Shown here in pieces: positions 6,631 through 50,335 of a DNA stretch of 64,000 bases. Made by a program: the position numbers and the translations under genes. Within the stretch, counting starts at the first letter, position 1, and each line of letters opens with the position of its first letter. The DNA lies in NCBI GenBank assembly GCA_009777955.1, contig WRKW01000001.1, forward strand, positions 98,255 to 162,254, written 5' to 3'. The notes under the pieces were generated by a model. It saw nothing but the letters and a program-made list of their open reading frames with translations. It searched no databases and was not told where the DNA came from. Origin of the DNA: Alphaproteobacteria bacterium (GTDB taxonomy: Bacteria > Pseudomonadota > Alphaproteobacteria > Rs-D84).

Positions 6631-6644
6631 TTTCTGGCTCGGCG

Positions 6645-7655: not shown

Positions 7656-7664
7656 TGTAAAACT

Positions 7665-7913: not shown

Positions 7914-7971
7914 TATAATTCTGTCCGTGAATTAATTGATTTTTACAGACACGAAGATTTATATAAGAAAT

Positions 7972-23750: not shown

Positions 23751-25316
23751 ATGAAAAAATTGTTTTTAATATTTCCGTTAATATTTATTCTTGCCGCATG
23801 TGCTGGTGGTGGTAATCCTGGTACACCAGAAACCCCGAAAGTTCCAACCGAACCCGAGATTCCGACAGAACCGGAAGTGCCGGAATATTCCGTGATACTG
23901 GAATCAAACCTGCCTGAATTAGTTCGTAGCATTGGCGGCACAGAAATAGGATTTACCGATTATACGATAAACTATGACACTACGAATTTTCACAAAATTT
24001 CAGACGAAATAAATAGTATCAGCGAGCGGACGATATTATATAAAAAGGTTAATGATTCATCCGATGCAACAGCTGAAATTGCGGGTGTTTCAGAAATTGC
24101 ATGGGTCGACATATTTGGTCTTAAAGGTCTGGTTACTGGAACTAATGCATCTGGGAACAGTATGTTTGAATTCGATACACTTCCAATAGAATCCACAGCA
24201 GAAACAGGCACTGATATATCTCTTGCGACAAAGGCGGCGGTTGATGAGTTTAATAATAAAATCCAAGAAAGAATAGATAACCAAAATGAAGTTTTCCTAA
24301 CAGTAATAGATTCAATATATGCAAACCTTGTTTGGCAATATTATAAACCGCAATCAAATAATGCATCTTCTTGGTTTAATGCTCTGCTTCCCAAAGACGC
24401 GACCATAACTGCCAGCGATTTGGGGTTTAGTATGAACGGGAAACGTATTTTAGACAAATGGACGCTTGAAAAATTGGGATACCAGTGGATGCTATACAAT
24501 GGTACTTATATCTGGAAAACATTTGGAAATGTTGCAAACGAAGAAAAGAATGGCATATCATTATTAACAGAATATTTTTCATCACTGCTGATAACTTCCC
24601 CTGACGAGATTGAAACTATTAAAATCATGGCATTAGAGAAAGCCGGTGGGGTGTCGATTCAATACAAAGATACGGAACACTTTTTTGTTGAAGGCAAAGC
24701 CGGTCTGCGTTATGCGACATTCGGATATTATAGAAAAATAGACCACACAGTCGATAACGGCGATATAATTGCCAGTGATAGCACCGTCGATGTATTTTAC
24801 GGCAATGACGATGTCGACAGTTACCTTATAGGCGATAGAGATGATTTGAAAAATATGCTTGTATCACGCGACGACCCGCGCGGGGCAATTTTGTTTAGTG
24901 GAAAGACTGTTGCGAATTTGACGGTTGGAAATGAACAAGCCGACTTGGTCGGAACTGCATCGCTAAACATCAGCGGTCTAAGTCAAGGCAATGCGTCCGC
25001 ACCTTATGAAAAACTAGTCTTAGATTTTGGTAGTGACTGGTACAACGTAGAAATAGACAATCTGGAAAATTCCACTGCAAAATTGGTTTATCAAAGTTCC
25101 GTCAAATCAGGATTTGGATTGACCCCGACAGGTATCGGTTTTTCAGGTGCTGGCGACAAAATGACCATATCGGATAACGGTGTCGAAATAAAATATTTCG
25201 GAAATGAAAATTATACAGAAGCGGCTGGTTCGTATCACTTGCAAGATAACGGTGCAATAACGAATGAGCATTTCAAACTGCAAGGCGCATTTGGTGTAAA
25301 AACAGAAATGCCATAA
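23751..25316 (+). CDS. Lipoprotein, hypothetical (521 aa)
   Basis: MKKLFLIFPLIFILAACAGGG has lipobox LAAC, followed by a Pro/Thr/Glu-rich linker. No family assignment. Confidence 0.55.
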   Translation: MKKLFLIFPLIFILAACAGGGNPGTPETPKVPTEPEIPTEPEVPEYSVILESNLPELVRSIGGTEIGFTDYTINYDTTNFHKISDEINSISERTILYKKVNDSSDATAEIAGVSEIAWVDIFGLKGLVTGTNASGNSMFEFDTLPIESTAETGTDISLATKAAVDEFNNKIQERIDNQNEVFLTVIDSIYANLVWQYYKPQSNNASSWFNALLPKDATITASDLGFSMNGKRILDKWTLEKLGYQWMLYNGTYIWKTFGNVANEEKNGISLLTEYFSSLLITSPDEIETIKIMALEKAGGVSIQYKDTEHFFVEGKAGLRYATFGYYRKIDHTVDNGDIIASDSTVDVFYGNDDVDSYLIGDRDDLKNMLVSRDDPRGAILFSGKTVANLTVGNEQADLVGTASLNISGLSQGNASAPYEKLVLDFGSDWYNVEIDNLENSTAKLVYQSSVKSGFGLTPTGIGFSGAGDKMTISDNGVEIKYFGNENYTEAAGSYHLQDNGAITNEHFKLQGAFGVKTEMP

Positions 25317-25549: not shown

Positions 25550-25894
25550 TTAATGAATCGAAGGTACATCCAATGCGCCGGCTTTAACAAGTAAATTGCG
25601 CATTTCATCATTGACCCGGGTTGACCAGCCGCGTCCAAAATAAGATTTTAACCCTTTAAGAACATCGGGATCAAATCTGATATCGGCGCGTTGTTTTGTA
25701 ACGGCTTGTTTTGGTCGCCCGCGCACCGAACCCCGGGCTTGGGAACGTGCAACGTTTCTCTTCAATCGCATAAGTCTTTTTAATGCCGATGATTTTTTTT
25801 CTATTGTTACAATTGTCTTGCGTATGTCGGATAAAGATTGGATTTTTATTTTAATTTTTCTGGGGTGCGACAGAATTTTTCGTATAGTTGCCAT
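25550..25894 (-). CDS. BrnA-like antitoxin (DUF4415 family), apparently orphan
   Basis: C-terminal …RGRPK…IRFDPDVLKGLKSYFGRGWSTRVNDEMRNLL matches the BrnA pattern (IRLDxDVLEWFK…GYQTRIN). No brnT-like ORF lies upstream. Confidence 0.45.
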   Translation of the reverse strand: MATIRKILSHPRKIKIKIQSLSDIRKTIVTIEKKSSALKRLMRLKRNVARSQARGSVRGRPKQAVTKQRADIRFDPDVLKGLKSYFGRGWSTRVNDEMRNLLVKAGALDVPSIH

Positions 25895-26085: not shown

Positions 26086-27666
26086 ATGAACATGTATCAA
26101 TTATTAGAAAAAACTGCAAAGCAGTTTTCATCAGGTGTATTTTTAACACGCGAAAAAATAACCTATCCCCAGTTTGTAAAAATAGTAAAACTTCGCGCGG
26201 CATCATTGGCAGAGCAGGGGGTCAAAAAAGGTGATTCGGTGGGTCTGCTTTCCCATAATATAATGGAATGGCCGCTGACTTTGTTTGCTTGTTGGTATCT
26301 GGGCGCGCGCGTATTGCTTCTTGATACAAATCTGACCGAATTCGAATACGAAAATATGATACGGCTGACAAAAACAAAGCTGGTTGTTGCGCAAAAATCG
26401 TTCTTTTATAAAACGACGAATTTTAAATTTTACGATATTGAAACCGAAGATAAAAAAAACGCGTCCGTACCAAAACCAGCGAACACAGAATCGGATGACA
26501 TAGCGACATTGTCTTTTACATCGGGTTCTACTGGCATACCGAAGATTGTGCCACTGACCCACTTTAACCTGGTCGAATGTTCCAAATCACTGCAAGATTT
26601 AAAAAAGTATATAACAAATTCGGACATTATATACGGATTCCTTCCGATGTATCATATCTTTGGATTTGCGGTTGGAATTCTGGTGACATTGAACTTTGGT
26701 TGCAGCGTTCTTTTGCAACCAACCATCGATCCGAAATTAATACTGGCAGATTTCAAGGAATATCGGCCCCAGGTAATTCCAGCTGTGCCGCGCGTATTCG
26801 AATTGTTCCGTGCAAAAATATTGGATGGAGTAAAGGAAAAAGGCAAACTTGGGCTGGTAACATTTGTCTTGAAATACAACAAAATACTTTCTGCAATCGG
26901 GTTTGGATTTATAGTCAAAAAAGTGCGCGGTCTTATATTGGAAATATTTGGCGGACGGGCGCGTTTATTAATCGCGGGTGGCGCGGCAACAAAGCCCGAA
27001 GTGGAAAATTTCTATACCGACCTGGGGCTGATGTTTACTCAGGGATATGGATTGACCGAAACAGTGGGGCCAATCTGTATATCGCATCCGAAACCTGGTC
27101 GAAAGCCATATTCGTTTGGTGGACCGCTGTCCAACAACGAATGCCAGATGCGAGATATTGATAATGAAGGCATTGGAACACTATGGGTTCGTGGAAACAA
27201 TGTATTCAAAGGATATCTGAATAATCCGGCCGCAAACGCGGAAGTGTTCGATAAAAAAGGATGGTTCAATACAGGCGACCAAGTTTCTATGGATAAAAAT
27301 GGCGAGTATCGTTTCCGTGGACGTAAAAAACAAGTTATCGTGCTGGATTCTGGTAAAAATGTGTATCCAGATGAATTAGAGGGGCTTTTTATCTTATTGC
27401 CCGGTGTAAAAAACGTTGCTGTGTTTGAACATGTGTTAAAAGAAAAAACAGTATCTTATGGTGTATTCCAGGTGGGCGAAGATATGACTTTAGAGCAGCT
27501 TGGCAAATATATAGCCGATACCAACAAAAAAATCGCCGGCTATAAATGGGTAACGCATTTTGCTATAACAACGGATGAACTTCCTTTGACATCTACCAAA
27601 AAAGTAAAACATCATGTGGTACGCGAAAATCTTATAGCTGGAAAATATCCTATGCGGAAAGAATAG
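26086..27666 (+). CDS. AMP-dependent synthetase/ligase (long-chain acyl-CoA synthetase-like)
   Basis: AMP-binding signature SFTSGSTGIPKIV plus the GYGLTE and GDQV…YRFRGRKK motifs. Start chosen at MNMYQLL (26086); the ORF track starts at 25888. Confidence 0.7.
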   Translation: MNMYQLLEKTAKQFSSGVFLTREKITYPQFVKIVKLRAASLAEQGVKKGDSVGLLSHNIMEWPLTLFACWYLGARVLLLDTNLTEFEYENMIRLTKTKLVVAQKSFFYKTTNFKFYDIETEDKKNASVPKPANTESDDIATLSFTSGSTGIPKIVPLTHFNLVECSKSLQDLKKYITNSDIIYGFLPMYHIFGFAVGILVTLNFGCSVLLQPTIDPKLILADFKEYRPQVIPAVPRVFELFRAKILDGVKEKGKLGLVTFVLKYNKILSAIGFGFIVKKVRGLILEIFGGRARLLIAGGAATKPEVENFYTDLGLMFTQGYGLTETVGPICISHPKPGRKPYSFGGPLSNNECQMRDIDNEGIGTLWVRGNNVFKGYLNNPAANAEVFDKKGWFNTGDQVSMDKNGEYRFRGRKKQVIVLDSGKNVYPDELEGLFILLPGVKNVAVFEHVLKEKTVSYGVFQVGEDMTLEQLGKYIADTNKKIAGYKWVTHFAITTDELPLTSTKKVKHHVVRENLIAGKYPMRKE

Positions 27667-27893
27667 CAATCGTGAGTACGTGAAGCTAATATTGTGTATT
27701 TTGTAGTTTTTTGTCTCTCTGGCGGGTTATTTATAAAGTTTTTCCCGCCTTGCAGGCAAAATATGACGATCTTTGATCTTCTTGCTTTGAATATAATTTT
27801 GTTGAAAATCAATGGAAATTTTGTCTATAATCAGCCAAATGACAAAGGTTCAAACGGGTTGTGTGGTATTTCTTGGAAAATTGAAAGATTGAA

Positions 27894-28625
27894 ATGAGTG
27901 CGATAAAGGTAACGAATTTAACAAAAACATTTGGTGGGCTTAGGGCGGTGGACAACCTATCAGTTACCTTTCCACGAGGGATAGCAACAGGACTTATCGG
28001 CCCGAATGGGTCGGGAAAGACAACCTTGATGAATCTTTTGACTGGGATACTGGCACCGGATTGCGGACAGATTTCTATCGGCGGTAAGCAATTTGACAAA
28101 GTCGAATCCGTTAAATTGCGTAATATGCGCATTGCCCGGACTTTTCAAGACGGACGGTTAATAAATCAAATGTCTGTTACTGACAATTTACTGCTTGCGA
28201 TTGCAAAGACCAATATCTGTTCGGGATTGTTCGAATCCGGTTCGAAAGACTATACTGTTCGACTTGAAAATGTTATGCAAAAAATCCATTTGACCGAAAA
28301 ACACGATGCAAATGCCGAAGATTTGTCTTATGGTCAGCGAAAATTATTAGAGCTTGGCCGTGCGATTATCCAAGACGCGGATATCTATTTACTGGACGAG
28401 CCTTTCACAGGACTATTCCCGAAAATGGTTGAACAAGTGGCGGGGCTTTTGACGGAACTTAAAAATAAAGGTAAAACGCTGATTATTATAGAACACAATA
28501 TAGGACTGATTCGTCGTCTGACGGACAATATTGTTGTCCTTGATCATGGACAGATGTTGGCTTGTGGTCGGCCGGAAATGGTTCTTAAAGACAAACAAGT
28601 CCAAGAAGCATATTTGGGGGTATAA
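27894..28625 (+). CDS. livG: Branched-chain amino acid ABC transporter ATP-binding protein (LivG-like)
   Basis: Walker A GPNGSGKTT, signature LSYGQRKLLELGRA, and Walker B YLLDEP. Confidence 0.8.
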   Translation: MSAIKVTNLTKTFGGLRAVDNLSVTFPRGIATGLIGPNGSGKTTLMNLLTGILAPDCGQISIGGKQFDKVESVKLRNMRIARTFQDGRLINQMSVTDNLLLAIAKTNICSGLFESGSKDYTVRLENVMQKIHLTEKHDANAEDLSYGQRKLLELGRAIIQDADIYLLDEPFTGLFPKMVEQVAGLLTELKNKGKTLIIIEHNIGLIRRLTDNIVVLDHGQMLACGRPEMVLKDKQVQEAYLGV

Positions 28626-28626
28626 A

Positions 28627-29718
28627 ATGAAAAACAAAAAATTTTGGATTATGGTTGCAGCCATAGCAATCGCAACAGTGGCATTTTTTGTGCTGTCAAG
28701 CGGGCGCAAGATGACAGATGATCGGCCGGTTGTGCGCATCGGTGCGTCTTTGCCGCTTACGGGGGATCTTGCGCCTATCGGCAATGTAATAAAAGAAAGC
28801 CTTGTGATGGCATTGTCGGAAATTCCGGTGGATTCAAAATATCGTTACAAGATTATTTTTGAAGATGATCAATATGACATGAAAAAAATCGTAACAAATG
28901 CAAATCGTCTTATCAGCATTCGGAATGTAGACGCGATGCTTTTTATGTTTGATGGTTCGAATGTTTCGGCCCCGATAGCTGAACGACGTGAAATACCTTC
29001 GCTTGGATGCACCTGGGGTGCGGATTTTTTCAAAGACTATGAATATTCTTTCAACCATTGGTCCCGACCCGAAACACAAGCGGCGGCTTTTGTCTTGCTT
29101 ATGAAAGATGAAAATATAAAGACCATTTCCATCATAGCCCAACATTCGGCAAATATAACAGAGCTTATGAAAGCGGTTGAAAAGCAAGCCAAACAAAACA
29201 ATATAAAGTTAAACCCGATTAATTATGTAAATATCGATGTGAAAGATTTCAGAATGGAAATCACAAGAATGAAAAAGCAACAGCCCGATGCCGTCATGAT
29301 AATGCTTTTGGATCCGCAAATAACAATTTTTGCAAAGCAAGCGGCAGAGCAGAATCTTAACATCAGATTTACATCCATAGACGAAATTGCGCACACGCCA
29401 AATAAAGAATTATTAGAAGGATCGATATTTGTTTCGTCTATAACGGGTGGCGATGATTTTCAGGAACGGTTCGCAAAGCATACAAATTTGTCGATGAAAT
29501 CTTGTGCATCAAATCTTTACGACTGGTTCAAAATCATTGTGGATATTTTTGAATCGTCGGATCATAGGCTGACAGGTGAAGAATTAAAAAACCGTATATA
29601 TCAAATCAAAAATTTCCCGTCCGCGATGGGAATAGAAATCAGTGTTGATAAAGATGGTATAATCGATACCCCCCTGTTTCGTGCGCGCATAAAAGACGGC
29701 AAAGTTGCAAAGGAATAA
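28627..29718 (+). CDS. Liv-type periplasmic substrate-binding protein, paralog 1
   Basis: MKNKKFWIMVAAIAIATVAF signal anchor, then VVRIGASLPLTGDLAPIGN, typical of Leu/Ile/Val-binding (Peripla_BP_6) proteins. Confidence 0.7.
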   Translation: MKNKKFWIMVAAIAIATVAFFVLSSGRKMTDDRPVVRIGASLPLTGDLAPIGNVIKESLVMALSEIPVDSKYRYKIIFEDDQYDMKKIVTNANRLISIRNVDAMLFMFDGSNVSAPIAERREIPSLGCTWGADFFKDYEYSFNHWSRPETQAAAFVLLMKDENIKTISIIAQHSANITELMKAVEKQAKQNNIKLNPINYVNIDVKDFRMEITRMKKQQPDAVMIMLLDPQITIFAKQAAEQNLNIRFTSIDEIAHTPNKELLEGSIFVSSITGGDDFQERFAKHTNLSMKSCASNLYDWFKIIVDIFESSDHRLTGEELKNRIYQIKNFPSAMGIEISVDKDGIIDTPLFRARIKDGKVAKE

Positions 29719-29721
29719 CGT

Positions 29722-30846
29722 ATGAAAAACAAAAATATTTGGATTTTCGCAGGAATTATGGCAATTCTGGTAATCGCGGTATTTGCACTGTCCAGTGGCC
29801 ACCGATCTGCCGACAACAGGCCGGTTGTACGTATCGGTGTATCCCTGCCACTGACCGGGAATAATGCTTTTATTGGCGTACCCGTGCGCGAAGCGGCGAA
29901 AATGGCTTTGGAAGACTGGCAAAAAAAAGATACCAGATTCAGATACGAACTGATTTTTGAAGATGACGGTTTTGACCAAAAAAAGGTCGCAATGATTGGT
30001 AACAAGTTCATAAATATAGATAAAGTAAATGCGATCATGGGTATCTGGACATTGACTTTACATCAATTTCGGGAATTGGCGCACAAACACGATATCCCGT
30101 TTTTCGCCTGTGGTTGGGGACATGATTCTTCCGATGGGGAATTAGTATTTAATAACCAGACCCCACTGAGTGAAACATCGCGGGTATTTGCAGATATAAT
30201 AAAAAACAAATATAGGGCAAAAAATACCGTCCTTGTCGGAATGATTTCGGGCGGTGATTTTGCAATGCACGATTATATAGAAGCAGAATTTAAAAAAAAT
30301 AACATAAATATTATACTTAGAGAAACTGTGCAGTACGGAACCACCGATTACGGAATAATGATCCAAAAAATCAAACAAAAGAAACCCGAAGTAATTATTG
30401 CTGTCATGCCTCCTTATGAACTTTCTATATTTACAAAACGCCTGAAAGAAACAGGTTTGGATATTCCGATTACAAATGTGGCGGATTATTTTGAATTTGC
30501 GCCAAATAAAGAAGTTTATGACGGCATGTACGTTGTAATTTCGTCTAATGGAACGGATGACTTTAAGAAAAGGTTCACAGAAAGAACAAAAAAACCGTTT
30601 CCCAGTTATGATTGTGTGGCACCGGGATATGATAATATAAGCATATTGATCCATGCTTTTGAAAATGCGGATGCAGAACCGGGACAGATTCCGACAACAG
30701 AGAAAGTCGTGAAACAGATTCACGGAATAAAAAATTGGAATGGCGCGACAATGGAAAATATGCACGTTCAGCCGGATGGTCAGATATTTTCCCCGGCATA
30801 TATTGGCATTATGAAGAACGGTAAAGCAGAAATAATAAAGGAATAA
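29722..30846 (+). CDS. Liv-type periplasmic substrate-binding protein, paralog 2
   Basis: MKNKNIWIFAGIMAILVIAV…VVRIGVSLPLTGNNAFIGV. Same architecture as paralog 1. Confidence 0.7.
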   Translation: MKNKNIWIFAGIMAILVIAVFALSSGHRSADNRPVVRIGVSLPLTGNNAFIGVPVREAAKMALEDWQKKDTRFRYELIFEDDGFDQKKVAMIGNKFINIDKVNAIMGIWTLTLHQFRELAHKHDIPFFACGWGHDSSDGELVFNNQTPLSETSRVFADIIKNKYRAKNTVLVGMISGGDFAMHDYIEAEFKKNNINIILRETVQYGTTDYGIMIQKIKQKKPEVIIAVMPPYELSIFTKRLKETGLDIPITNVADYFEFAPNKEVYDGMYVVISSNGTDDFKKRFTERTKKPFPSYDCVAPGYDNISILIHAFENADAEPGQIPTTEKVVKQIHGIKNWNGATMENMHVQPDGQIFSPAYIGIMKNGKAEIIKE

Positions 30847-30849
30847 ATC

Positions 30850-31932
30850 GTGATAAGAAAAATTTGGATTATGGTTTTATTTGCAGTCATTGCGGCTGCA
30901 TTGGTTTGTTTTCTTATTCAGGGTCGAAATATGGACACGGGAAAGCCGGTGGTTAAAATCGGATTGGTGCTTCCGCTAACTGGAAATTCGGCGCACCTTG
31001 GCCAAGCGATCAAGGGTGCTGCCGAGGTCGCAGTGGCGCATGCGAACAGAAATTCCGATAACCGGTATGATTATAAAATTGTTGCTGAAGATAGTATGTT
31101 ACAAATGCCGATAGCTACCAGGGTAACAAGCAAAATGATTTCGACCGACCATATTGATGCCTTGATCAGTTTTTCGGCCGAAGTTGTAAACGTTGTATCT
31201 TCAATTGCCGAAAAAAATAAAATTATACATTTTGGCATTTCTGTAGATAAATCTGGCGCGACCGGAAAATATAATTTCATAAACTGGACCATGCCGGAAT
31301 CCAGTACTGCCAAAATGACCGAACAAATCAAGGCCAAAGGATTTAAAAATGTTGCGGTTGTTTCGTTTAATCAGTCCGGCGCGCTGGCAAATTCCGAAAT
31401 GCTGGACAAGAAACTGCGCGCAGTCGGAATTAAAAGTACACTCTATCGTTTTAATGGTGATATCCGCAATTTCAAAACAGATATACAAAAAATGCAGGAC
31501 GCAAAAACTGAACTATATGTTTTGCGTCTATTTGATCCGCAAATGAGCATTTTCATAAAGCAACTGCGTGAAACGGGCGACAAATCCACTATATCAAGTA
31601 TAGAAATGTTTAACGCCATTGCCGATCCAAGTATAATTGAGAGTCTGTGGTTTGTGGATACAGCAACGGCAGAAAACGACATAACCCGTGAAATTATGAA
31701 ATACAACAAATCCGAAGTGACATGGGGGCTGGGTCAGGTTTATGACAATGTTATGATGATTGTTCGCGCTTTTGAAATTGCGCCGGATAAAGTGGGTGCA
31801 ATCGATGTCTTGATTGACACCAAAGAATTTGATGGAACAGTCGGACGTTTAAAACAGGACAAAGATGGTATTTTCCATTCGGTCGCTACAATCAAAAGAA
31901 TTGAAAACGGAAAACAAGTAATTGTGAAATAA
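30850..31932 (+). CDS. Liv-type periplasmic substrate-binding protein, paralog 3
   Basis: GTG start. IRKIWIMVLFAVIAAALV…VVKIGLVLPLTGNSAHLGQ. Confidence 0.65.
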   Translation: MIRKIWIMVLFAVIAAALVCFLIQGRNMDTGKPVVKIGLVLPLTGNSAHLGQAIKGAAEVAVAHANRNSDNRYDYKIVAEDSMLQMPIATRVTSKMISTDHIDALISFSAEVVNVVSSIAEKNKIIHFGISVDKSGATGKYNFINWTMPESSTAKMTEQIKAKGFKNVAVVSFNQSGALANSEMLDKKLRAVGIKSTLYRFNGDIRNFKTDIQKMQDAKTELYVLRLFDPQMSIFIKQLRETGDKSTISSIEMFNAIADPSIIESLWFVDTATAENDITREIMKYNKSEVTWGLGQVYDNVMMIVRAFEIAPDKVGAIDVLIDTKEFDGTVGRLKQDKDGIFHSVATIKRIENGKQVIVK

Positions 31933-32798
31933 TGCTTTATCAACTGCTTCTTAACACTTTGATTATTGGTTCTGGATACGCATTGGTCGCGATGGCGTTC
32001 CGGTTGATGTATTGGGTATCGCCATTCTTTAACTTGACACTTGGTGCATCAGTTGCACTTGGCGCGTATCTTGGATTTTCGCTGGTTCCGTTATTTGGCA
32101 TTGCGGCATGGCCAATTGTTGCAATATTGGTCGCGTTGTTCACCTGGGCATTAGAGAAATTTATTTACAAACCCGTCCGTGGGTTGGGTGCATCACCGAT
32201 AGTTCTTCTTGTTGTGTCATTGGGGGTTTATACAATATTCGAATCTATAATACATTTGATATACGGTCCGCAATATCAAACGCTGGGATCTGCAACCGAT
32301 TTTTCAACCATCTCAGGAATTCCAAGTGCACAGGCCGCTACTGTCATTTTTGGTGTTATAGTTTTTGTCGGAGTGTCCCTATTGCTACGATATACATTTT
32401 TTGGAAAACAAATTCGTGCTATACAAGATAATCCGGCATTGGCCAATCTTGTCGGTTTGGATGTTCCGCGGATTGTAATGATCGTATCTGTTTTGGCTGG
32501 CGGTATCTTGGGTGCTTATGGCCTTATGGTTGGTTATGATACTGGCATGGAACCTACTATGGGATTCAATATCTTATTCAAAGGAATGATAGCGGCGATT
32601 ATCGGCGGTGCCAGCATGTCCGGTGCATATTTTGGCGCGATGATACTATCCGGCGCAGAAAATCTTGGTGTTTGGGTATTCGCTTCGCAATGGCGTGATG
32701 TAGTAGCGTTTGTTATCTTTATTGTGCTGCTTTGGTTGCGACCAAATGGAATATTCGCTCACAAGCCCAGGGCAACAAAGTGCAAGGCAAAATCATGA
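31932..32798 (+). CDS. livH: Branched-chain amino acid ABC transporter permease (LivH-like)
   Basis: 288-aa polytopic protein with the LivH-type pattern …GYDTGMEPTMGFNILFKGMIAAIIGG…. Confidence 0.8.
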   Translation: MLYQLLLNTLIIGSGYALVAMAFRLMYWVSPFFNLTLGASVALGAYLGFSLVPLFGIAAWPIVAILVALFTWALEKFIYKPVRGLGASPIVLLVVSLGVYTIFESIIHLIYGPQYQTLGSATDFSTISGIPSAQAATVIFGVIVFVGVSLLLRYTFFGKQIRAIQDNPALANLVGLDVPRIVMIVSVLAGGILGAYGLMVGYDTGMEPTMGFNILFKGMIAAIIGGASMSGAYFGAMILSGAENLGVWVFASQWRDVVAFVIFIVLLWLRPNGIFAHKPRATKCKAKS

Positions 32799-33892
32799 AT
32801 AAAAAATTATGGATTACTATTGGATTGATCATATTGACCGTTATCGCTATTTTGGTATATTCGGGCAAACGTGAAATTATGGATTCGCGTCCTGTTGTAA
32901 AAATTGGTGTGATTCTGCCATTGACCGGCAATAATCAGGAAGTTGGAAATAATGTGAAAAATGTCATACAACTGTATGTGAAAGAAAATCAAAAAAATTA
33001 TAAAATCCGGTATGACATTATTATAGAAGATGATGCATTTCGAACAGCAAATGTAGCAACATTAGCCCATAAATTGGTAAATGTGGACAGGGTCGACGGT
33101 CTTGTGACAATTTTGGCCTATGCTGGTATTGTCGCATCAACAGTTACGGATAAAGCCGGTGTCCCACATATTAATATCGCATCCGCCATCGAGGCCGCCG
33201 ACGGAAAATACAGTTTTGTAAATTATACTCCACTTCCCGCAATTCAGGAAAGATTTTCTGAATTGTTTAAAAGAAAAGGTATTAAAAAACTGGCTATTAT
33301 AAACATGGATCATGTTGGGCCAATGCTGTATAACAAACATCTGAAAGACGCTATCAGCGAAAATAAAATTTCATATGAAGAGCATTTCTTCAAACCCGAA
33401 GAAAGAGATTTTAGAATGCTGATACAGAAAATCAAAGAAAACAAGCCTGATATCATAATAGTGATGGCATTGCCGCCAAGTTTGGATGTACTTGGCAAAC
33501 AAATAAAAGAGCTTGGCATTGATATCGAACTTACATCTGTTGCTTTTTTCAGCATGTCCAATAATAAAGAATTATTCGAAGGATTTATTTATGTTGATGG
33601 TCCAGATGGAAGCCCGGAATTTATAAAAAAAATTAACCGGGAACTTAAAACAGATAATCTTTACCTTCTTGCATTCGCACACGATACCATAAAGATTTAC
33701 ATGGATAGCATAGATTCGTTTTATATAGAAAATGATCGTCTGCCCACACGCGAAGAAATTGCCGAAATGCTGCGGAATTTAAAAGATTTCAAAGGAGAGG
33801 GGGGGGTATATAGCATGGGCAAGGACGGTTCAACTCAATCAGAAGCTATATTCAAGAAAATCATAAATGGCAGGCCGGAGATTGTAAAATGA
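32795..33892 (+). CDS. Liv-type periplasmic substrate-binding protein, paralog 4
   Basis: MNKKLWITIGLIILTVIAIL…VVKIGVILPLTGNNQEVGN. Start chosen at 32795, overlapping the livH stop. Confidence 0.7.
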   Translation: MNKKLWITIGLIILTVIAILVYSGKREIMDSRPVVKIGVILPLTGNNQEVGNNVKNVIQLYVKENQKNYKIRYDIIIEDDAFRTANVATLAHKLVNVDRVDGLVTILAYAGIVASTVTDKAGVPHINIASAIEAADGKYSFVNYTPLPAIQERFSELFKRKGIKKLAIINMDHVGPMLYNKHLKDAISENKISYEEHFFKPEERDFRMLIQKIKENKPDIIIVMALPPSLDVLGKQIKELGIDIELTSVAFFSMSNNKELFEGFIYVDGPDGSPEFIKKINRELKTDNLYLLAFAHDTIKIYMDSIDSFYIENDRLPTREEIAEMLRNLKDFKGEGGVYSMGKDGSTQSEAIFKKIINGRPEIVK

Positions 33893-34992
33893 AAAACAAA
33901 AAACTTTTAATTATCGGTGGAATTATTGTCACGGTGGCGATCACGATATTCGCATTTCAAAGTCGGCGTGAGATTGCCAGCGATAAACCGGTAATAAAAA
34001 TCGGTGTTATCGCACCACTTACCGGTGATAATGCCAATGTGGGTCAGAACTGCAAAAGGGGAATAGAGTTTGCAATCGCAAACCTGTCAAATTCGTCTGT
34101 GCGATACAAAATGATTTTAGAGGATAGCAGATTTCAATCTTCGACAGCAGTATCTGCCGCACATAAACTTATATCCAAAGATAATGTTGATATTTTATTT
34201 GCTTGTGAATCTCCATCTGGCAGTGCGGTCGCACCAATCGCTGACAAGGCCGGGAAACTTATGATGACTATATTCGCCAGCGCACAGGAAGTTGCAGTTG
34301 GATACAAGCATTCGTTCCTTCATTGGACATCACCAAATGCTGAAATGGCAAAAGCTGTGGAATTATTTAATAAGAATAAAGTCAAAAAATTGTTGATATT
34401 TGAACAGAATCATTCTGGCACAAAGGCACTTGGCGACGCTTTGCGTGAAGAACTGGCCGGAACAAAAATAGAATACAAAACTTCCATAATAATGTCTGAT
34501 GAACGTAATTTTGGCGACATCGTTGCAAAGGCACAGGCTGAAAAAGCGGACGGATATATGATTATTGTTTTACCGCCCCCGGTAAATATGCTTATAAAAA
34601 AGTTAAATGAAGTGGGCGATACGACGAAGCGTTATAGCGTAGAGGTTCCTGCCCTTGTAGAAGACAAGTCCATATTTGAAGGTGTGGAATTTGCAGATGT
34701 TTATGAAGGCACACCTGAAATCCTTGACGCATACCGCACAAAATACAAAACTGATAATGTATATGGCGTTGCTTTTGCATTTGACGGCATGATGATGATA
34801 GATAAAGTGATAAGCGATTGGTATCGTGTGTACGGCACTTTACCAACTGGAACAGAAATTTCGGAATCGCTGTTAAAGCTGGAAAACTGGAATGGCGCGG
34901 TTGGTTCGGTAAAGATTGATAACGAGGGTCGCATTCATTCCAAAGCGGTTATAAAGGTAATCAAAAATGGCAAACCAGAGATTGTAAAATAA
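33889..34992 (+). CDS. Liv-type periplasmic substrate-binding protein, paralog 5
   Basis: MKNKKLLIIGGIIVTVAITIF…VIKIGVIAPLTGDNANVGQ. Confidence 0.7.
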   Translation: MKNKKLLIIGGIIVTVAITIFAFQSRREIASDKPVIKIGVIAPLTGDNANVGQNCKRGIEFAIANLSNSSVRYKMILEDSRFQSSTAVSAAHKLISKDNVDILFACESPSGSAVAPIADKAGKLMMTIFASAQEVAVGYKHSFLHWTSPNAEMAKAVELFNKNKVKKLLIFEQNHSGTKALGDALREELAGTKIEYKTSIIMSDERNFGDIVAKAQAEKADGYMIIVLPPPVNMLIKKLNEVGDTTKRYSVEVPALVEDKSIFEGVEFADVYEGTPEILDAYRTKYKTDNVYGVAFAFDGMMMIDKVISDWYRVYGTLPTGTEISESLLKLENWNGAVGSVKIDNEGRIHSKAVIKVIKNGKPEIVK

Positions 34993-34993
34993 C

Positions 34994-35860
34994 ATGGAAT
35001 ACTTACTGAATCTTGGTATTTTATTTTGTATTTACGGCATTCTTGCACTGTCGTTAAATCTTACCGTCGGTATGGCTGGGTTATTATCGCTGGCTCATGC
35101 CGCATTCTATGGAATTGGTGCTTATGCGGCTGCATTGGGTATGACTGCCCTTGGTATGAATTTTTTTGTTTCACTTGCGTTGGGTGCGGTTATAAATATC
35201 AGTGCGGCGGGCATAGTTGGTAAAATCTTGTCGCGTTGGAAGGGCGATTACTATGCCATTGTTTCTGCTGGACTTTCAATTATCGTGTTTTCCATACTTT
35301 TGAACTGGAAAGGACTTACTCGCGGGCCGCTTGGTATTTTTGGTATTCCAAAGCCTGTGATATTCGGATACGCCATTGAATCAAACACCGTTTTTTTGGT
35401 TTTATGCCTGATTGTGTTAGCAATTGTGTTTGTCTTGTATCAATGGCTTGATCACAGCACTTTCGGTCGTGCCGCCAAGGCAGTTCGCGAAGACGAACAG
35501 TTGGCAAGCGTATTGGGCTATAATCCGCCGCGAATAAAATCCATATTGCTTTGCCTATCCGCCATTATTGCCGGTGTTGCGGGTGGCTTGTTCGCCAGTT
35601 ATATCGCATTTATTGACCCATCTACGTTCCATATAAAGGAAGGAATATTTCTTTTTACAATCATAATCATAGGTGGATTGGCCAGCAGTCGGGGCAGCGT
35701 TCTTGGTGCGCTTGTACTGTTATCACTGCCCGAAGTCTTGCGTTTTATCGGTTTGCCCTATGAAATCGCCGCACAGATGCAGCAAATCATATACGGTGCT
35801 GCCTTGGTGCTGATGATGGTGTTCAAGCCCAAAGGTTTTCTTGGAAAATACAGGATATGA
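34994..35860 (+). CDS. livM: Branched-chain amino acid ABC transporter permease (LivM-like)
   Basis: 288-aa polytopic protein with …LSLAHAAFYGIGAYAAA… typical of LivM. Confidence 0.8.
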   Translation: MEYLLNLGILFCIYGILALSLNLTVGMAGLLSLAHAAFYGIGAYAAALGMTALGMNFFVSLALGAVINISAAGIVGKILSRWKGDYYAIVSAGLSIIVFSILLNWKGLTRGPLGIFGIPKPVIFGYAIESNTVFLVLCLIVLAIVFVLYQWLDHSTFGRAAKAVREDEQLASVLGYNPPRIKSILLCLSAIIAGVAGGLFASYIAFIDPSTFHIKEGIFLFTIIIIGGLASSRGSVLGALVLLSLPEVLRFIGLPYEIAAQMQQIIYGAALVLMMVFKPKGFLGKYRI

Positions 35861-36561
35861 ACGTAATGTTGGAACTGAAAAACATTATTACAGGATATGG
35901 TGACAAGATCGTATTAAACGATATTACGACGGCGATAGATCCTTTGCGCATTACTGTCGTAATGGGGCCGAATGGTTGTGGCAAGACTACTATGCTGAAA
36001 ACCATTATGGGTTTGTTGCGCCCCATGTCCGGTGATATTATATATGGCGGTGCAAACATATCACCTAATCCGCAGACTTGGATAAAGCATGGTGTATTTA
36101 TGATTGGACAGGGTGGACGAGTATTTTCAAAAATGACTGTTCGCGAAAACATCGAAATCGCCTGTCATCATTGGGATAATCGCGGCGAATTTCCAGCACG
36201 CTTGAATGAAGTTATCCAACATTTTCCAGACTTGTACGAACGATTGGACGATGCGGCGGGAAATCTTTCCGGCGGCCAACAGCAAATGGTCGCACTGGCG
36301 CGCGGTCTTGTAAACCGTCCGCGTCTGCTTTTGCTTGATGAACCATCAATAGGCCTTGCGCCAAAGCTTATAAGCGATACTTTCGGTAAACTGCATGATA
36401 TAAATAAAAAGACTGGCACGGGATTTATTATTATCGAACATAATCTTAAAACTCTTTTGCCTTTGACCGACCGTGCAATAATATTGGCACAGGGCAAAAT
36501 CGCCTATGATGGCGCATCTGATGATACGACCCTGCAAAGCATGATCGATAAGATTTTCTAG
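35857..36561 (+). CDS. livF: Branched-chain amino acid ABC transporter ATP-binding protein (LivF-like)
   Basis: Walker A GPNGCGKTT, LSGGQQQMVALAR, and LLLDEPS. Confidence 0.8.
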   Translation: MNVMLELKNIITGYGDKIVLNDITTAIDPLRITVVMGPNGCGKTTMLKTIMGLLRPMSGDIIYGGANISPNPQTWIKHGVFMIGQGGRVFSKMTVRENIEIACHHWDNRGEFPARLNEVIQHFPDLYERLDDAAGNLSGGQQQMVALARGLVNRPRLLLLDEPSIGLAPKLISDTFGKLHDINKKTGTGFIIIEHNLKTLLPLTDRAIILAQGKIAYDGASDDTTLQSMIDKIF

Positions 36562-37443: not shown

Positions 37444-40400
37444 TTATCTTTTTGCTGTTGGAACTAAATTCATGACATTGATAAGCATGGGATCGGTACA
37501 AGTACCTATAAATTCTGTGTCGGCTGTATCCATACAGTTGGATATTACATGCTCTCTTCTACAACTCGTGCCCGATTTATATACTCTAATTTTTGGACAA
37601 ACTTTGCCGGAATTAACCCCACTGGCGATAACACAGTTCATCGGTTTTGATGAATCCGCCAGATAAAATTCAGTATATCTAATTCGTAGGCTATTATTAC
37701 CAGAAGGGCAATTATAACGAGATGGGTCACCACCAGAACAATTGCCGCCGCCATTGCCACATAAATAGCTTACATCAAAGCCACATTGATTGATCTCTAC
37801 GCGATTGCCAAAAAGGGCACCAAGACCGCTTTTTACGGTAACAGTACAAGCTTCTATAGTTCCAAAGACCACTCGCCAAGTCGTGCTATAATAATAAAGG
37901 AAATCTCCTATCAATGTAGAGTCGGGGTTATATGAGTCTTTATTTGATCCGTCTTGGCTACCGCATATTCTATTTACAGGGGAAGTCCACTTGGCAGCAC
38001 CACTCACCCTAACATTGTAACATTGATAATCTGTTCCACACCGTGTTCCGTTACTAGCGGGTTGTCTTCCCCCGTTTTCCCAACAATTGCAGGAACCCCA
38101 CGAGTTTGTATCAACATTTGCATCTTGTCCGTTTCCAAATCCCGATACACACATGTTTGGACTGATGGCATATGCATCTACCAATGCCTGAAGTTGAGAA
38201 GTGGTATATTTTTCTCCACTGTGATTGATTGCTATTTGTCCTTCGTTATTAAGCTCGATAAATACGTCATCCACAGTTTTCGGAGCACAAGCTATATTTT
38301 TATCCCATTTATTATCCCTGGCTTCCATAAATACTCCTTCGAGCTGTGTACATTGCATTGAGAGCATGGTAATTATTCTGTAATAAATTTCTGTGGCAAC
38401 GCCGATGTAATTAATGTCCGTAGACATATCTTTCGGGTGAACATATCTTCCATCTGCGGTTTTTCTGAATCCGCCGAAGATATTTTCCGCGAACTCGGGG
38501 TTATCAGGAGGATTACATGCCTCTATCGATGTTAATTCGCGCGCGCATTCAGAAACCTTTTCTTCCCCCGGACCATGGAACGAAAACCAATCCATTGCTT
38601 GGCCGGTTATGAAAAGTCCACTATTCGGGTTGTACAAATTGACATAATTCTGTCCGCCAAATTTGTCGAAACAGTTTTCTACTACCGCGCGGCATGATAC
38701 TTCAAGGTCGGTTCCCTGCCGGGTCGCTACATACTGTGCGATTATATCACCCGCCGCAGTATTTCCAAACATATTGTTGCATGCCTGTACATATTCTTCG
38801 CACAAATGTCCGGTAGCTACCAGAAAGCCCGGCTGATTTGTCGTCTTGTCTGTTACCAAAGCTTCCATAGCCTTTGATAACGATTGTTCGTTGTTCATAT
38901 AACATGCGGATACAAATCCCATGCATCCTTCTTTTATTTCCCGTACTTTTTCATTTTGTGCGTAATATATGTCCAGCATAGCCTTGTCCAGATAATCAGA
39001 CCATACATCAGCCGCCTTTTCCCGACATTTGTCTAAAGCGGGTTCTGCAAACTGTTTTACGCGTCTTTCAAAATTTAATACAAATTCACGATTATCGGGA
39101 ACCTTTGCCAGTTTTTGATCCGAAACCGACACTCTGCCCGAAAATTTCAACATTTCTCCCAGTTTGTAAAATTCCACCACCCCTTCGAAAGGTTTTCCTG
39201 TTGTTGCATCTATAAATTGGCCGTTATCAAGACATTTACGGTAATTTTCTCCGCATACTTGATCCGATTGAACCGCAGCTTCTACTTCCCGCAGACATGT
39301 TGTTGCGTCGAATTCGTTGTGTGTCTGGCGATGCTGAACCCGTGCGAGATCCAGCATGGCACTGCTTTCGCGGGTGCTTGCGGTCAGGGTTCGCTTCATT
39401 TCATCCAGTTTTCTTTGCACCGTGTTGCAATCCTGTTCCATAGCCATAAGGTATGCTGTTACCGCGCGTTGAAGTGCCGCATCAGTACAATCCGGTTTCA
39501 CAGCTTGGCGGCATTGAGAATATATGGCTGTATACAAATTCGCACCGTTAAGGGTCGCTATGGCCTGGCCGCTGTCCATGGCACCAAAGCTTGCATCTAC
39601 ATTCATCGCAAGATTGATGCTATTCAAGGCTTCATTTCTGCCGCCTACATTCGCATCTTCGCCCCTTATGGAATTTAATATAGCATTCAAAAGGCCTTTT
39701 GCAGCAGACTTGTCATTAGTCAGGGCGTTTTCACCTTCGGTGGCTTTTTTCATTGCGGATGCCTGGGCTGCGGTCATTCCGACAACATCCAGATTTTCTG
39801 TAAATTCGGTCAGCTTTGCGGATGCGTCCTGCATAACGCCTTGGGTTCTTTGGATATCATAAACACGGTCGCTACAGCTGCACCGTTGGTAATTGCTGTT
39901 TTTTATCGCGCAAAACTGATCCATACAGGCGAAATAAGAACCTTTGCATTGTTCATAAGCCGCACCCGTGCGAGTTTCTACGGTTTGTGCCGTGGCATTG
40001 CGCGAAGTGATGGCGGAACGTGCGGCGGATGGGACGCGGGCGGTAAGTGCAGATGTTGTAGCGGAACGTGCAGATGCAGTCTGTCGTGATGCGGAAGAAC
40101 GTGCGGGTATACCTTGAACGCGTTGCGCGGCAGCTGTGATTGGTACGGCGGAACGTGATTGAACCGCTGTTGAAGTGGGCGAAGATCCTGTTGCTCGCGA
40201 TACAGTATTGCGTGTGGATTCCGCAGCTTGTGGTGCGACACGTGGTGCCGGAACATCCGCGCTTTGTACCCTGTTATCTGTACTTTGTCGCGGGTTAGAT
40301 GTGTTGCGCGGCGTGGCGGCATCAATCGCGGATATACAAAAAACCAGCAAAAAAGATATAAATAGCTTTCTCACGCTCTTATAATAGCAATTTTGTAAAC

Positions 40401-40449
40401 AGCGGGTCAATATGTAATTGATATCTTGTAAACTAAATACAAGTACCAA
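37444..40449 (-). CDS. Large secreted Cys-rich protein (~975-1001 aa) with an Arg/Ser/Ala/Thr-rich low-complexity N-terminal region
   Basis: Signal peptide KLFISFLLVFCISAIDAA, with a possible GTG start at 40374. Low-complexity ~150 aa (…SARSATTSALTARVPSAARSAITSR…), then a ~800-aa domain with >40 Cys. No family assignment. Confidence 0.5.
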   Translation of the reverse strand: MVLVFSLQDINYILTRCLQNCYYKSVRKLFISFLLVFCISAIDAATPRNTSNPRQSTDNRVQSADVPAPRVAPQAAESTRNTVSRATGSSPTSTAVQSRSAVPITAAAQRVQGIPARSSASRQTASARSATTSALTARVPSAARSAITSRNATAQTVETRTGAAYEQCKGSYFACMDQFCAIKNSNYQRCSCSDRVYDIQRTQGVMQDASAKLTEFTENLDVVGMTAAQASAMKKATEGENALTNDKSAAKGLLNAILNSIRGEDANVGGRNEALNSINLAMNVDASFGAMDSGQAIATLNGANLYTAIYSQCRQAVKPDCTDAALQRAVTAYLMAMEQDCNTVQRKLDEMKRTLTASTRESSAMLDLARVQHRQTHNEFDATTCLREVEAAVQSDQVCGENYRKCLDNGQFIDATTGKPFEGVVEFYKLGEMLKFSGRVSVSDQKLAKVPDNREFVLNFERRVKQFAEPALDKCREKAADVWSDYLDKAMLDIYYAQNEKVREIKEGCMGFVSACYMNNEQSLSKAMEALVTDKTTNQPGFLVATGHLCEEYVQACNNMFGNTAAGDIIAQYVATRQGTDLEVSCRAVVENCFDKFGGQNYVNLYNPNSGLFITGQAMDWFSFHGPGEEKVSECARELTSIEACNPPDNPEFAENIFGGFRKTADGRYVHPKDMSTDINYIGVATEIYYRIITMLSMQCTQLEGVFMEARDNKWDKNIACAPKTVDDVFIELNNEGQIAINHSGEKYTTSQLQALVDAYAISPNMCVSGFGNGQDANVDTNSWGSCNCWENGGRQPASNGTRCGTDYQCYNVRVSGAAKWTSPVNRICGSQDGSNKDSYNPDSTLIGDFLYYYSTTWRVVFGTIEACTVTVKSGLGALFGNRVEINQCGFDVSYLCGNGGGNCSGGDPSRYNCPSGNNSLRIRYTEFYLADSSKPMNCVIASGVNSGKVCPKIRVYKSGTSCRREHVISNCMDTADTEFIGTCTDPMLINVMNLVPTAKR

Positions 40450-47966: not shown

Positions 47967-49325
47967 ATGTCAAGAATCGGAATCAGTCTAATAAAAACCC
48001 TTGAATACAAGGACAAAACTTACCGTGTGTGGGATGAATCCTTGAAAGGATTCGGGATTGTAGTCCAAAAGGACTCGAAATCTTTTATAATTCAATACCG
48101 GAATAAATACGGGCGGCAAAAATATCTGACTCTGGGGCGCGTCGGTAAAATCGCACCGGACGAGGCCCGCCGATTAGCCGAAAAGAAGTTCGCCGATATA
48201 ACCTATGAACAAGACCCCGCCGCCCAGCGCCAGGAAGACAAAAATACCATGAGCGTCGACGAAATGTGCGATTGGTATATGCGCGAGGGCACAGGCCATA
48301 AAAGAGAAAGCACTATATCGCACAACAGAAGCGCGATAGACCGCCATATAAAGCCTTTGATAGGCCATTTGTCGATAAAGGAAGTCAATAGCGAAATCGT
48401 CACGGGACTTGTCCGTGATATAGAATGCGGTGATAAAATCCGCCGGAAAGAAAAAAGTGAAAAACTGCGTGGCCGGATTTATGTAAAGGGCGGTAAATCC
48501 GCCGCCTCTCACACTTTGGCGTTTCTGGTGACTATTTTTGAATATGCTATCAAACATGGAAAACTGGAAAAGAATCCCGCGCGTGGAATAAAGCGCGCGC
48601 CGGATAATAAAAAAGAAGTGTTTTTAACTATTGACGAGATTCGTGGCTTTGGCGGCCTGCTGGCATATCACAAGGTGCAAAAAGACCATAAGACCGCCAT
48701 AAATCCCATTAAACTGATATTGCTAACCGGTTGCCGCAAGGGTGAAATAGCAAGCCTTAAATGGGATTATATAGACTGGGAAAAACAATGTTTTTATTTC
48801 CCGATTACCAAGACCACCGGGAAACAAGTCCGGCCATTCGGAAAGGGGGCGCTGGAATTGTTGCAAGAATTACGGCGGCGGCGCGATAACAAATCCCCCT
48901 TTGTATTCCCCGCCACCAGGGAATCCAAGGACGGGCATTTGACTGGGAGCGGATTATACAAAGCGCTTAAAGCAATTTTGAATGTTCGGGACGACAATAA
49001 TAGTTTGATTTTTCAAAAGGCCAATTTTGATATTCATGCCTTACGCCATACATTCGCAAGCATGGGCGAGTACATGGGATATAGCCCTTTGGTTATCGGG
49101 GCCCTACTAGGCCATAAGTCGAAAGGTGTCGGCATAACCGGCCGATATATCCACTTTGTAGATAAGTCTTTAATCGCGGCGGCGGATGATATATCATTAA
49201 GCTTCAAAGAAGCCCTGGCCGGCACTAGCACGGAAAATCTAAAAGGAGAATCACAATGTCAGAATTTATCAGATGTACCATTAAACAAGCCTGCGAGTGG
49301 ATTGCCTTCAATTGGGAGCCATTAG
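47967..49325 (+). CDS. int: Tyrosine-type site-specific integrase (P4-like, with an N-terminal arm-binding DUF4102-like domain)
   Basis: N-terminus …YRVWDESLKGFGIVVQKDSKSFIIQYR…. C-terminal catalytic region with …HALRHTFAS… and a tyrosine near the end (…GRYIHFVDK…). RBS AGGAGA. Confidence 0.8.
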   Translation: MSRIGISLIKTLEYKDKTYRVWDESLKGFGIVVQKDSKSFIIQYRNKYGRQKYLTLGRVGKIAPDEARRLAEKKFADITYEQDPAAQRQEDKNTMSVDEMCDWYMREGTGHKRESTISHNRSAIDRHIKPLIGHLSIKEVNSEIVTGLVRDIECGDKIRRKEKSEKLRGRIYVKGGKSAASHTLAFLVTIFEYAIKHGKLEKNPARGIKRAPDNKKEVFLTIDEIRGFGGLLAYHKVQKDHKTAINPIKLILLTGCRKGEIASLKWDYIDWEKQCFYFPITKTTGKQVRPFGKGALELLQELRRRRDNKSPFVFPATRESKDGHLTGSGLYKALKAILNVRDDNNSLIFQKANFDIHALRHTFASMGEYMGYSPLVIGALLGHKSKGVGITGRYIHFVDKSLIAAADDISLSFKEALAGTSTENLKGESQCQNLSDVPLNKPASGLPSIGSH

Positions 49326-50065: not shown

Positions 50066-50335
50066 ATGACAGATGAAAAACTAGAATCGCGAAAAAACGC
50101 GATTTTGCAAAAGGAGTATTGGACGACGGACGAAGCCGAATTTTACCTTATCTATATAAAGGGCATACATCGAACTTCGGCAAGCCTTCGGACCTATATC
50201 ACGAGAGGCGGGGGCCCGGCACATTTCAAGTGGTCGCGGTCGGTCCGATATAACAAGGCGCTAATCGACGAATGGATTCAAAAAAAATTGTCGCCGGCAA
50301 AAACCCATTCATTAGATAAGGGGGTTGAGGCATGA
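50066..50335 (+). CDS. AlpA/excisionase-like small HTH DNA-binding protein
   Basis: …EYWTTDEAEFYLIYIKGIHRTSASLRTYITRGGGPAHFKWSRSVRYNKALIDEWI… matches the AlpA/MerR-type phage transcriptional-regulator pattern (…wR…dIdeWi). RBS ACGGAGA. Confidence 0.45.
   Translation: MTDEKLESRKNAILQKEYWTTDEAEFYLIYIKGIHRTSASLRTYITRGGGPAHFKWSRSVRYNKALIDEWIQKKLSPAKTHSLDKGVEA

Follow-up and report, generated by a model that had tools for sequence, protein, structure and literature searches.

Gene content of the operon and its probable genome of origin

We describe here a group of nine genes on the + strand of a 64-kb stretch of DNA (the window, by which we mean the whole stretch that was analysed), which encodes a Liv-like ATP-binding cassette (ABC) importer together with five substrate-binding proteins (SBPs). 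Both the open reading frames (ORFs) and the Pfam matches reproduce the gene order that an earlier note had read from this DNA, namely livG, three SBP genes, livH, two SBP genes, livM and livF, or G-JJJ-H-JJ-M-F in a code where J is an SBP gene and G, H, M and F are livG, livH, livM and livF. The first gene encodes a LivG-like ATPase of 243 aa (27894-28625; ABC_tran 5.8e-31 and BCA_ABC_TP_C 3e-7). It is followed by SBP1 (363 aa, 28627-29718; Peripla_BP_6 1.5e-30), SBP2 (374 aa, 29722-30846; Peripla_BP_6 2.5e-36) and SBP3 (360 aa with a GTG start, 30850-31932; Peripla_BP_6 6e-26), then by a LivH-like permease of 288 aa (31932-32798; BPD_transp_2, PF02653, 5e-25), SBP4 (365 aa, 32795-33892; Peripla_BP_6 4.8e-26), SBP5 (367 aa, 33889-34992; Peripla_BP_6 3e-28), a LivM-like permease also of 288 aa (34994-35860; BPD_transp_2 8e-45) and finally a LivF-like ATPase of 234 aa (35857-36561; ABC_tran 1.1e-30). 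The Pfam matches are full length in both permeases and in 5/5 SBPs (Peripla_BP_6, PF13458), all five of which are predicted to be membrane-tethered receptors. Both ATPases match PF00005, PF12399 (BCA_ABC_TP_C) being found on the LivG-like one only, and the Walker A, signature and Walker B motifs can be recognised in their translations. The SBP length of 360-395 aa given in the earlier note holds at its lower end and not at its upper end: counted from the start codon beside the conserved N-terminus, the proteins measure 360-374 aa, and lengths of 386 and 395 aa result from counting TTG extensions of the ORFs upstream of that codon.

The eight gene junctions all lie between -4 and +3 nt and comprise three ATGA overlaps, one TAATG and four spacers of 1-3 nt. 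Overlapping stop and start codons are thus present at 4/8 junctions and not at nearly every one, as had been stated; the single operon deduced from them stands, because all the junctions are this tight, and we infer that the nine genes form one transcription unit. A promoter-like site of the sigma-70 type (TTGAAA-18-TATAAT, 27802-27831, +; 11/12 matches, consensus match alone) lies inside the 228-nt gap 5' of livG and is the best consensus match in the scanned region. An Rfam scan of the window returned three tRNAs only, with no riboswitch or leader 5' of livG. In agreement with the proposal that the five SBPs depend on one permease/ATPase set, the 64-kb window holds no SBP or Liv core gene beyond the operon.

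When compared with NCBIfam models, the livG gene ranks UrtD/LivG first, the livF gene UrtE/LivF, and the permeases LivH/UrtB and LivM/UrtC, all of them below the equivalog cut-offs (for example 194.9 against 304.1 for UrtD, 163 against 366 for LivM, and at most 38 against about 480-495 for the SBPs). Because every score lies far under the curated cut-off, the operon is, on its profile matches, classified as a HAAT-family importer (TC 3.A.1.4) and as an equivalog of neither Urt nor E. coli Liv.

The window most likely derives from the termite-gut metagenome-assembled genome (MAG) Th196P3_bin127 (WRKW00000000), obtained from the P3 hindgut of the humus feeder Termes hospes and classed in Rhodospirillales, "Rs-B50 group; Termite group" (Herve et al. 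2020). This MAG comprises 1,019,126 bp in 14 contigs, with 990 genes, a guanine-plus-cytosine (GC) content of 43.6% and a completeness of about 90% (Herve et al. 2020). The three closest LivM relatives (76-83% identity) belong to MAGs of the same Rs-B50 group with genomes of 0.90-1.14 Mb, so that the small genome supposed in the earlier note finds external support (1.02 Mb and 990 genes for Th196P3_bin127). Hepatincolaceae was ruled out as the lineage, since the relatives WRHR, WQWV and WRCO are classed as Rs-B50 group. No description of Rs-B50 biology was found, the term occurring in no main text of the literature searched. Two further contigs are identical to the window at the DNA level (100%): an ENA contig (L001) over 19722-40846, whole operon included, and a JGI contig (L002) over 26376-31017, from livG through SBP2; both may stem from the same termite sample as the window.

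Receptor tether, fold and binding pocket

The SBPs were said to be divergent outside a shared core, and this is what we observed: the motif PV(V/I)(R/K)IG...(L/A)PLTG(D/N) is present in 5/5, and pairwise identity within the window is 22-35%. Their N-termini start with M-(K/N/R) residues, after which comes a hydrophobic run that lacks charges and is 18-21 residues long (21 in SBP1). The hydropathy of this segment (Kyte-Doolittle 19-residue maximum) reaches 2.45-3.07, against about 1.45 and a 12-residue run in E. coli LivJ/LivK, and no lipobox cysteine occurs in the five window SBPs. An AlphaFold2 model of SBP2 (mean predicted local distance difference test, pLDDT, 93.2; predicted TM-score, pTM, 0.87) begins with a helix (residues 4-24), which a linker modelled at low confidence (25-34) joins to a type I binding-protein fold. 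The N-terminal helix may stay uncleaved and would then act as a membrane anchor. Genes for BamA, LpxI and an outer-membrane-protein (OMP) beta-barrel lie in the window as well, which indicates that the organism has an outer membrane and that the SBPs would face the periplasm at the inner membrane.

Searched with Foldseek, the SBP2 model matches best the amino-acid binders 4GNR (S. pneumoniae LivJ), 3TD9 (T. maritima TM1135) and 4N0Q (Brucella), with target-normalised TM-scores of 0.79-0.81; other matches are the urea binder 8TG1 and the R. palustris aromatic-acid binders 4EY3 and 4EVQ. All these solved structures are 14-20% identical to SBP2, and an assignment of the ligand by homology was consequently rejected, amino-acid, urea, amide and aromatic-acid binders being similarly distant in both sequence and fold searches.

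The binding pocket was compared at 12 columns equivalent to LivJ contacts, after 30 array SBPs had been aligned with LivJ and LivK. One of the LivJ residues considered, Glu226, we take to be a ligand contact. Most of the others used (Tyr18, Ser79, Thr102, Tyr202 and others) are described in PMC6983066. Distant paralogues are 15.3% identical at these columns, against 25.5% at all other columns. Orthologues behave in the opposite way: SBP1 and its orthologue in the MAG Nt197P3_bin125 (contig L003) are identical at 12/12 positions for about 66-67% identity overall, and SBP3 and its orthologue in Emb289P3_bin118 (L004) likewise at 12/12 for about 66-68% (binomial P about 0.009 in each case, against a background identity of 67-68% at the remaining columns), while the SBP2 orthologues, which range from 49 to 79% identity, retain equivalents of W78, W101, G150, D226 and C276. 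Within one genome, the pair J5/J6 of Lab288P3_bin136 (L006), although 68% identical, shares only 5/12 pocket columns. Paralogues that differ at the pocket and orthologues that keep it form the pattern expected if each orthogroup has one fixed ligand. The diversification of ligand specificity proposed for the five SBPs is therefore supported, at the level of in silico comparison.

The identity of these ligands is a separate question. A LivJ-type branched-chain amino-acid site was not recovered, the contacts being largely not conserved in an alignment of about 20% identity: the Tyr202 equivalent is missing in 5/5 SBPs, Ser/Thr79 is present in 2/5 and an acidic residue at 226 in 4/5. SBP5 alone keeps the equivalents of Ser79, Ser102 and Glu226; the solved homologues closest to it, 3TD9 (7e-14) ahead of 4N0Q and 4GNR, bind amino acids, and SBP5 is most likely, as far as homology indicates, an alpha-amino-acid binder. 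SBP4 has Ala at the Glu226 equivalent and the aromatic-acid binder 4EY3 as closest solved homologue (6e-13), and 4EY3 is also the closest solved sequence match of SBP2 (2e-8), with the urea binder 8TG1 close behind. The ligands of the SBPs other than SBP5 may include aromatic or other carboxylates.

These matches bring forward an explanation that concerns the ligand class alone and not the architecture, and that we hold to be rather unlikely: the transporter and most of its receptors would import ligands other than amino acids that abound in the guts of termites feeding on humus and soil, for instance aromatic acids derived from lignin, other organic acids, amides or urea. It draws on the ranking of 4EY3, a p-hydroxybenzoate/vanillate binder, for SBP4 and SBP2, on the roughly equal Foldseek scores of the four kinds of binder, and on the missing Tyr202 and the Ala of SBP4. 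It also draws on an acyl-CoA ligase gene (26086-27666, +) directly upstream of the operon and likewise beside it in L006, the gene cluster of CouP-type aromatic-acid binding proteins also holding a CoA ligase (PMC3610893). The ligase gene, however, runs in the other direction in L006 and does not occur in the flanks of L003 and L004, so that it is not an operon member; with its distance of 228 nt from livG, it was discarded as such. Moreover, SBP5 keeps its three LivJ-like residues and its amino-acid-binding homologues, the Asp/Glu at the 226 equivalent in 4/5 SBPs fits the binding of an ammonium group, no aromatic-degradation gene lies within the window, and a 990-gene genome would more likely scavenge building blocks than degrade aromatics. 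As for the ligase itself, it is an AMP-binding protein that NCBIfam matches best, at scores under the cut-off, to long-chain-fatty-acid and o-succinylbenzoate CoA ligases; the inverted homologue in L006 is 75% identical, and a BrnA-type antitoxin gene (25550-25894, -) lies just before it in the window.

Receptor arrays in related genomes and their turnover

Similar arrays were found in other genomes and contigs. Besides the window (likely Th196P3_bin127; five SBPs), the termite-gut MAGs contain M-J-G-JJ-H-JJ-F (L003, Nt197P3_bin125; five SBPs), M-G-JJJ-H-JJJ-F (L006, Lab288P3_bin136; six SBPs) and H-JJJJJ-M-JJ-G-JJJJJJ, then the contig end (L004, Emb289P3_bin118; at least 13 SBPs). Other arrays are H-JJ-(livG fragment)-J-G-JJJJ-M-J-(livF fragment)-J-F on a 558-kb JGI contig (L093; nine SBPs), H-JJ-G-JJJ-M-JJ-(livF fragment)-J-F on another JGI contig (L094; eight SBPs) and H-JJJJ-M-G-J, then the contig end, in a Logan assembly (L099; at least five SBPs). 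For a control, SBPs were counted at 80 metagenome loci with LivM relatives, and each had 0-2; of these loci, the 31 that span at least 8 kb hold none, one or two in 3, 26 and 2 cases, respectively, and never more; these loci were taken from a metagenome LivM profile scan and are mostly generic LivM, the pattern AF[YF]GIGAY being family-wide.

The core proteins are 70-83% identical to those of the window in L003, L004 and L006 (LivH, 73-77%) and 47-68% in L093/L094, whereas the SBPs of the relatives are mostly 25-39% identical to any window SBP. The termite-gut MAGs hold one orthologue each of SBP1 (L003, 66%), SBP3 (L004, 66%) and SBP2 (the MAG of L003, 59%). The last of these is an orphan gene beside groEL (10001-11113 of L097, WRHR01000015.1), outside the Liv operon of Nt197P3_bin125, from which it follows that receptors can leave the array. 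In a neighbour-joining tree, the SBPs form deep paralogue clades of which each genome holds a different subset, with few recent duplications (in L006, J5/J6 and J1/J3, the latter 62% identical). The hydrophobic N-terminal segment is not universal: in relatives with a single SBP (L005, L010 and L007-L009) and in the L099 array, lipoprotein signals replace it. Because these signals stand where the hydrophobic segments are lacking, all array receptors appear, from their predicted N-termini, to be tethered to the membrane by either the one or the other.

The pair L093 and L094 provides the closest view of how the arrays change. Their collinear blocks are 97.8-99.7% identical in DNA and six SBPs are common to both at 95-100% identity, yet 3/9 SBPs in L093 and 2/8 in L094 are strain-specific, matching nothing in the other array at more than about 50%. 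The differences are insertions and replacements of whole SBPs, whose breakpoints fall at most about 140 nt from the 5' end and about 35 nt from the 3' end of SBP genes. For example, J2 and J3 of L093 encode proteins 48% identical, while their first 138 nt are 99.3% identical and their last 177 nt 97.7%, including a duplicated 46-codon livG fragment. J6 of L094 combines the N-terminus of L093 J8 with a mature domain only 33% identical, and L094 J8 and L093 J9 have a common N-terminus for 42% identity overall. Short ORFs within the arrays (9848-9997 and 18451-18597 in L093, 18425-18571 in L094) correspond to 5' fragments of livG (46 codons, near-identical to the start of the full gene) or livF (22 codons) and represent footprints of segmental duplication as the arrays grew. 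The N-terminal regions, too, resemble one another more inside one genome than across genomes: linkers are 33% identical within a genome against 18% between genomes (permutation p = 0.0005), and the five lipoprotein SBPs of L099 (6008-13337) have near-identical signal peptides (MKKxLLSLCMVLALxACKEEKK) on mature domains at most 36% identical, which suggests concerted evolution of the 5' ends.

We tentatively propose, while being somewhat more inclined to doubt than to accept it, that the SBP genes are modular cassettes, in which the 5' stretch encoding the tether and the PVVKIG-LPLTG region and the last 12 or so codons would serve as recombination handles, so that receptor domains from a population-wide pool could be added, removed or exchanged on a fixed translocator. 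If so, gut symbionts of about 1 Mb would retune their import at the strain level, with up to at least 13 receptors per pump, as a nutrient-receptor counterpart of cassette-based surface variation. No diversity-generating retroelement or dedicated recombinase was found beside the array in the window, where the only integrase gene (47967-49325) lies about 11 kb downstream of the operon.

Two further loci deserve mention. On a 503-kb contig (L096, 10001-11122), an orphan SBP gene lies among housekeeping genes and encodes a histidine-rich HHHDHEHSGHHHEGHGD directly after the hydrophobic N-terminus, a composition from which this SBP may be metal-related. A distant locus (L098 782-10445, JGI 3300037067) contains five Peripla_BP_6 SBP genes, between which three genes for TrmB-family regulators run in the opposite direction, a layout that suggests ligand-specific regulation of individual receptors.

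Proposed working of the array, known counterparts and neighbouring genes

Considering these observations together, we think it probable that one HAAT-type translocator is served by five specificity-diverged, membrane-tethered receptors, as part of a clade-wide array that turns over. The single translocator would consist of the LivH-like and LivM-like permeases with the LivG-like and LivF-like ATPases. An N-terminal hydrophobic helix and a linker of about 10 residues would tether each receptor to the inner membrane on the periplasmic side, and each receptor would capture a different small ligand. The receptors would then compete for docking on the same LivHM channel, all five presumably docking there, and ATP hydrolysis would power import. 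The operon would be one case of an SBP-cassette array spread through a clade of gut Alphaproteobacteria with genomes of about 1 Mb (5 to at least 13 receptors per translocator), in which genomes would come to differ in their receptor sets as recombination close to the conserved 5' and 3' gene ends adds, removes or replaces entire receptor domains.

Several points weigh against parts of this proposal. Cleavage of the N-terminal segment by signal peptidase I is possible, and an S-S-G pattern follows the hydrophobic run in SBP1 and SBP2. The LivJ residues that bind the main chain of the ligand are not conserved in 4/5 SBPs, and the pocket columns themselves were carried over from E. coli LivJ at about 20% identity, one of them having shifted when sequences were added. 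Finally, the SBP gene ends in the window, while being the most similar DNA segments of these genes, are only 60-86% identical. No recent gene conversion was seen within the window array, and recent cassette exchange is accordingly shown in the relatives only and not in the window.

A different function for part of the receptors appears improbable. Some of the five SBPs might not feed the transporter and act as sensors, regulators or scaffolds, in the manner of AmiC, or be headed for loss. Indeed, the LIVBP fold also occurs in AmiC and GABA-B, both among the fold matches, orphan SBP genes lie away from transporters in relatives (L096, L097), and the distant L098 locus pairs SBP genes with TrmB-family regulators. 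In the window, however, 5/5 SBPs are intact and keep the tether and the family motif, their genes are translationally coupled to the core genes or tightly packed with them, and no signalling partner is encoded in or beside the operon. Orthologues of SBP1, SBP2 and SBP3 are moreover kept in other genomes with conserved pockets.

It is very improbable that the copies are redundant duplicates, acting by gene dosage, or decaying pseudogenes without divergence of specificity. The tandem layout, taken alone, fits simple duplication, and recent duplicates do exist in L006. Nevertheless, the check for near-identical duplicates and pseudogenes found neither in the window, where the receptors are too dissimilar for the former and all five ORFs run through their Peripla_BP_6 matches without frameshift or internal stop, and the pocket-equivalent positions differ among paralogues and are identical among orthologues. 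Weakest of all, and hardly credible, is an assembly or binning artefact such as a chimera of SBP genes that belong to different organisms. Repeated gene families are prone to misassembly, and the DNA does come from a metagenome assembly, but the two identical contigs described above agree with it, GC and GC skew are uniform along the operon, the paralogues are too divergent to collapse or be mis-joined even at their gene ends, and similar arrays exist in at least six other contigs, of which one measures 558 kb and another 47 kb.

We compared the proposed tethered, multi-receptor importer with known systems. The sharing of one ABC translocator by a few receptors is textbook knowledge, as in LivJ/LivK and Borrelia OppA1-5. 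Borrelia OppA proteins are lipoproteins, with three oppA genes in tandem before the core genes and two on plasmids. Like the window operon, E. coli LivJ/LivK-LivHMGF combines two BPD_transp_2 permeases, two ATPases of which one has a BCA_ABC_TP_C tail, and type I receptors of the Peripla_BP_6 family, with more than one receptor per translocator. It differs in having two receptors, which are soluble, closely related and made with short signal peptides that are cleaved off, where the window has five at 22-35% identity with hydrophobic N-termini of 18-21 residues and with genes interleaved among the core genes. The window proteins also miss all NCBIfam Liv/Urt cut-offs, the LivJ contacts are largely not conserved in them, and their LivM has 288 aa, against a livM gene of 1278 nt (425 codons) in E. 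coli.

The nearest functional analogues are, by analogy of organisation, Borrelia Opp and GlnPQ. Borrelia burgdorferi, an amino-acid auxotroph with a small genome, uses five structurally varied, tethered binding proteins on one ABC translocator, which widens the substrate range (PMC5736914, PMC7822543). Five receptors for one translocator in a small genome are thus common to both, membrane-tethered in Borrelia and predicted to be so in the window; Borrelia Opp nevertheless belongs to the Opp/PepT family, with cluster C binding proteins and peptide ligands, its genes are not interleaved with core genes as the window SBP genes are, and there is no evidence there of arrays of at least 13 receptors or of cassette replacement between near-identical strains. 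In GlnPQ of Lactococcus lactis, tandem binding domains of differing specificity are fused to the permease (PMC8025302), so that several receptor domains are held at the membrane beside one translocator, as is proposed for the window SBPs. The two GlnPQ domains are fused and of type II (cluster F) fold, whereas the window SBPs are separate ORFs with their own start and stop codons and their own predicted anchors. The CouP and 4EY3/4EVQ group of R. palustris shares the Peripla_BP_6 fold and includes 4EY3, the solved structure closest in sequence to SBP2 and SBP4; these aromatic-acid binders are, however, soluble periplasmic proteins, one per transporter, with 16-19% identity in the fold alignments, and the window lacks aromatic catabolic genes.

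Literature searches for comparable receptor arrays found no description. What appears new is the scale, with genomes of about 1,000 genes having 5 to at least 13 deeply diverged receptors for one translocator (five SBPs represent about 0.5% of the genes of the window's genome, and Emb289P3_bin118 has at least 13 in 1,250); the architecture, with predicted membrane-tethered receptors in an outer-membrane bacterium and their genes interleaved with the core genes; and the dynamics, with whole receptor domains replaced between nearly identical strains. If confirmed, these features would mean that what adaptive flexibility an extremely reduced gut bacterium has left is concentrated in an array of exchangeable receptors. 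The arrays would also provide a natural collection of Peripla_BP_6 scaffolds whose docking surfaces match while their pockets differ, of use for the study of specificity evolution and for biosensor design.

The operon region is otherwise surrounded by housekeeping genes (BirA, AcpS, HemW, MurF and Ddl), and the window encodes peptidases that are PepO-like, of family S51 and S33-like. Two long ORFs that flank this region, at 37444-40449 (-; 1001 aa) and 23751-25316 (+; 521 aa), have no Pfam or NCBIfam match; the relative contig L097 has genes of 988 and 563 aa that are likewise without a Pfam match on record. Between 47967 and 53217, the window contains a phage-type integrase (47967-49325), a Toprim protein (50332-51213), an AAA_25 ATPase (51156-52190) and an ImmA/IrrE-type M78 peptidase (52660-53217, -), with a tRNA nearby (55591-55664, -), and this segment is likely, from its gene content, an integrated mobile element. 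Finally, the first 8 kb (1-8000) have a GC content of 36-38% and a negative GC skew, against 40-49% GC in the remainder; they hold an AAA_14/DUF4143 ATPase and the Peptidase_S51 gene, and end near a tRNA (7668-7740).

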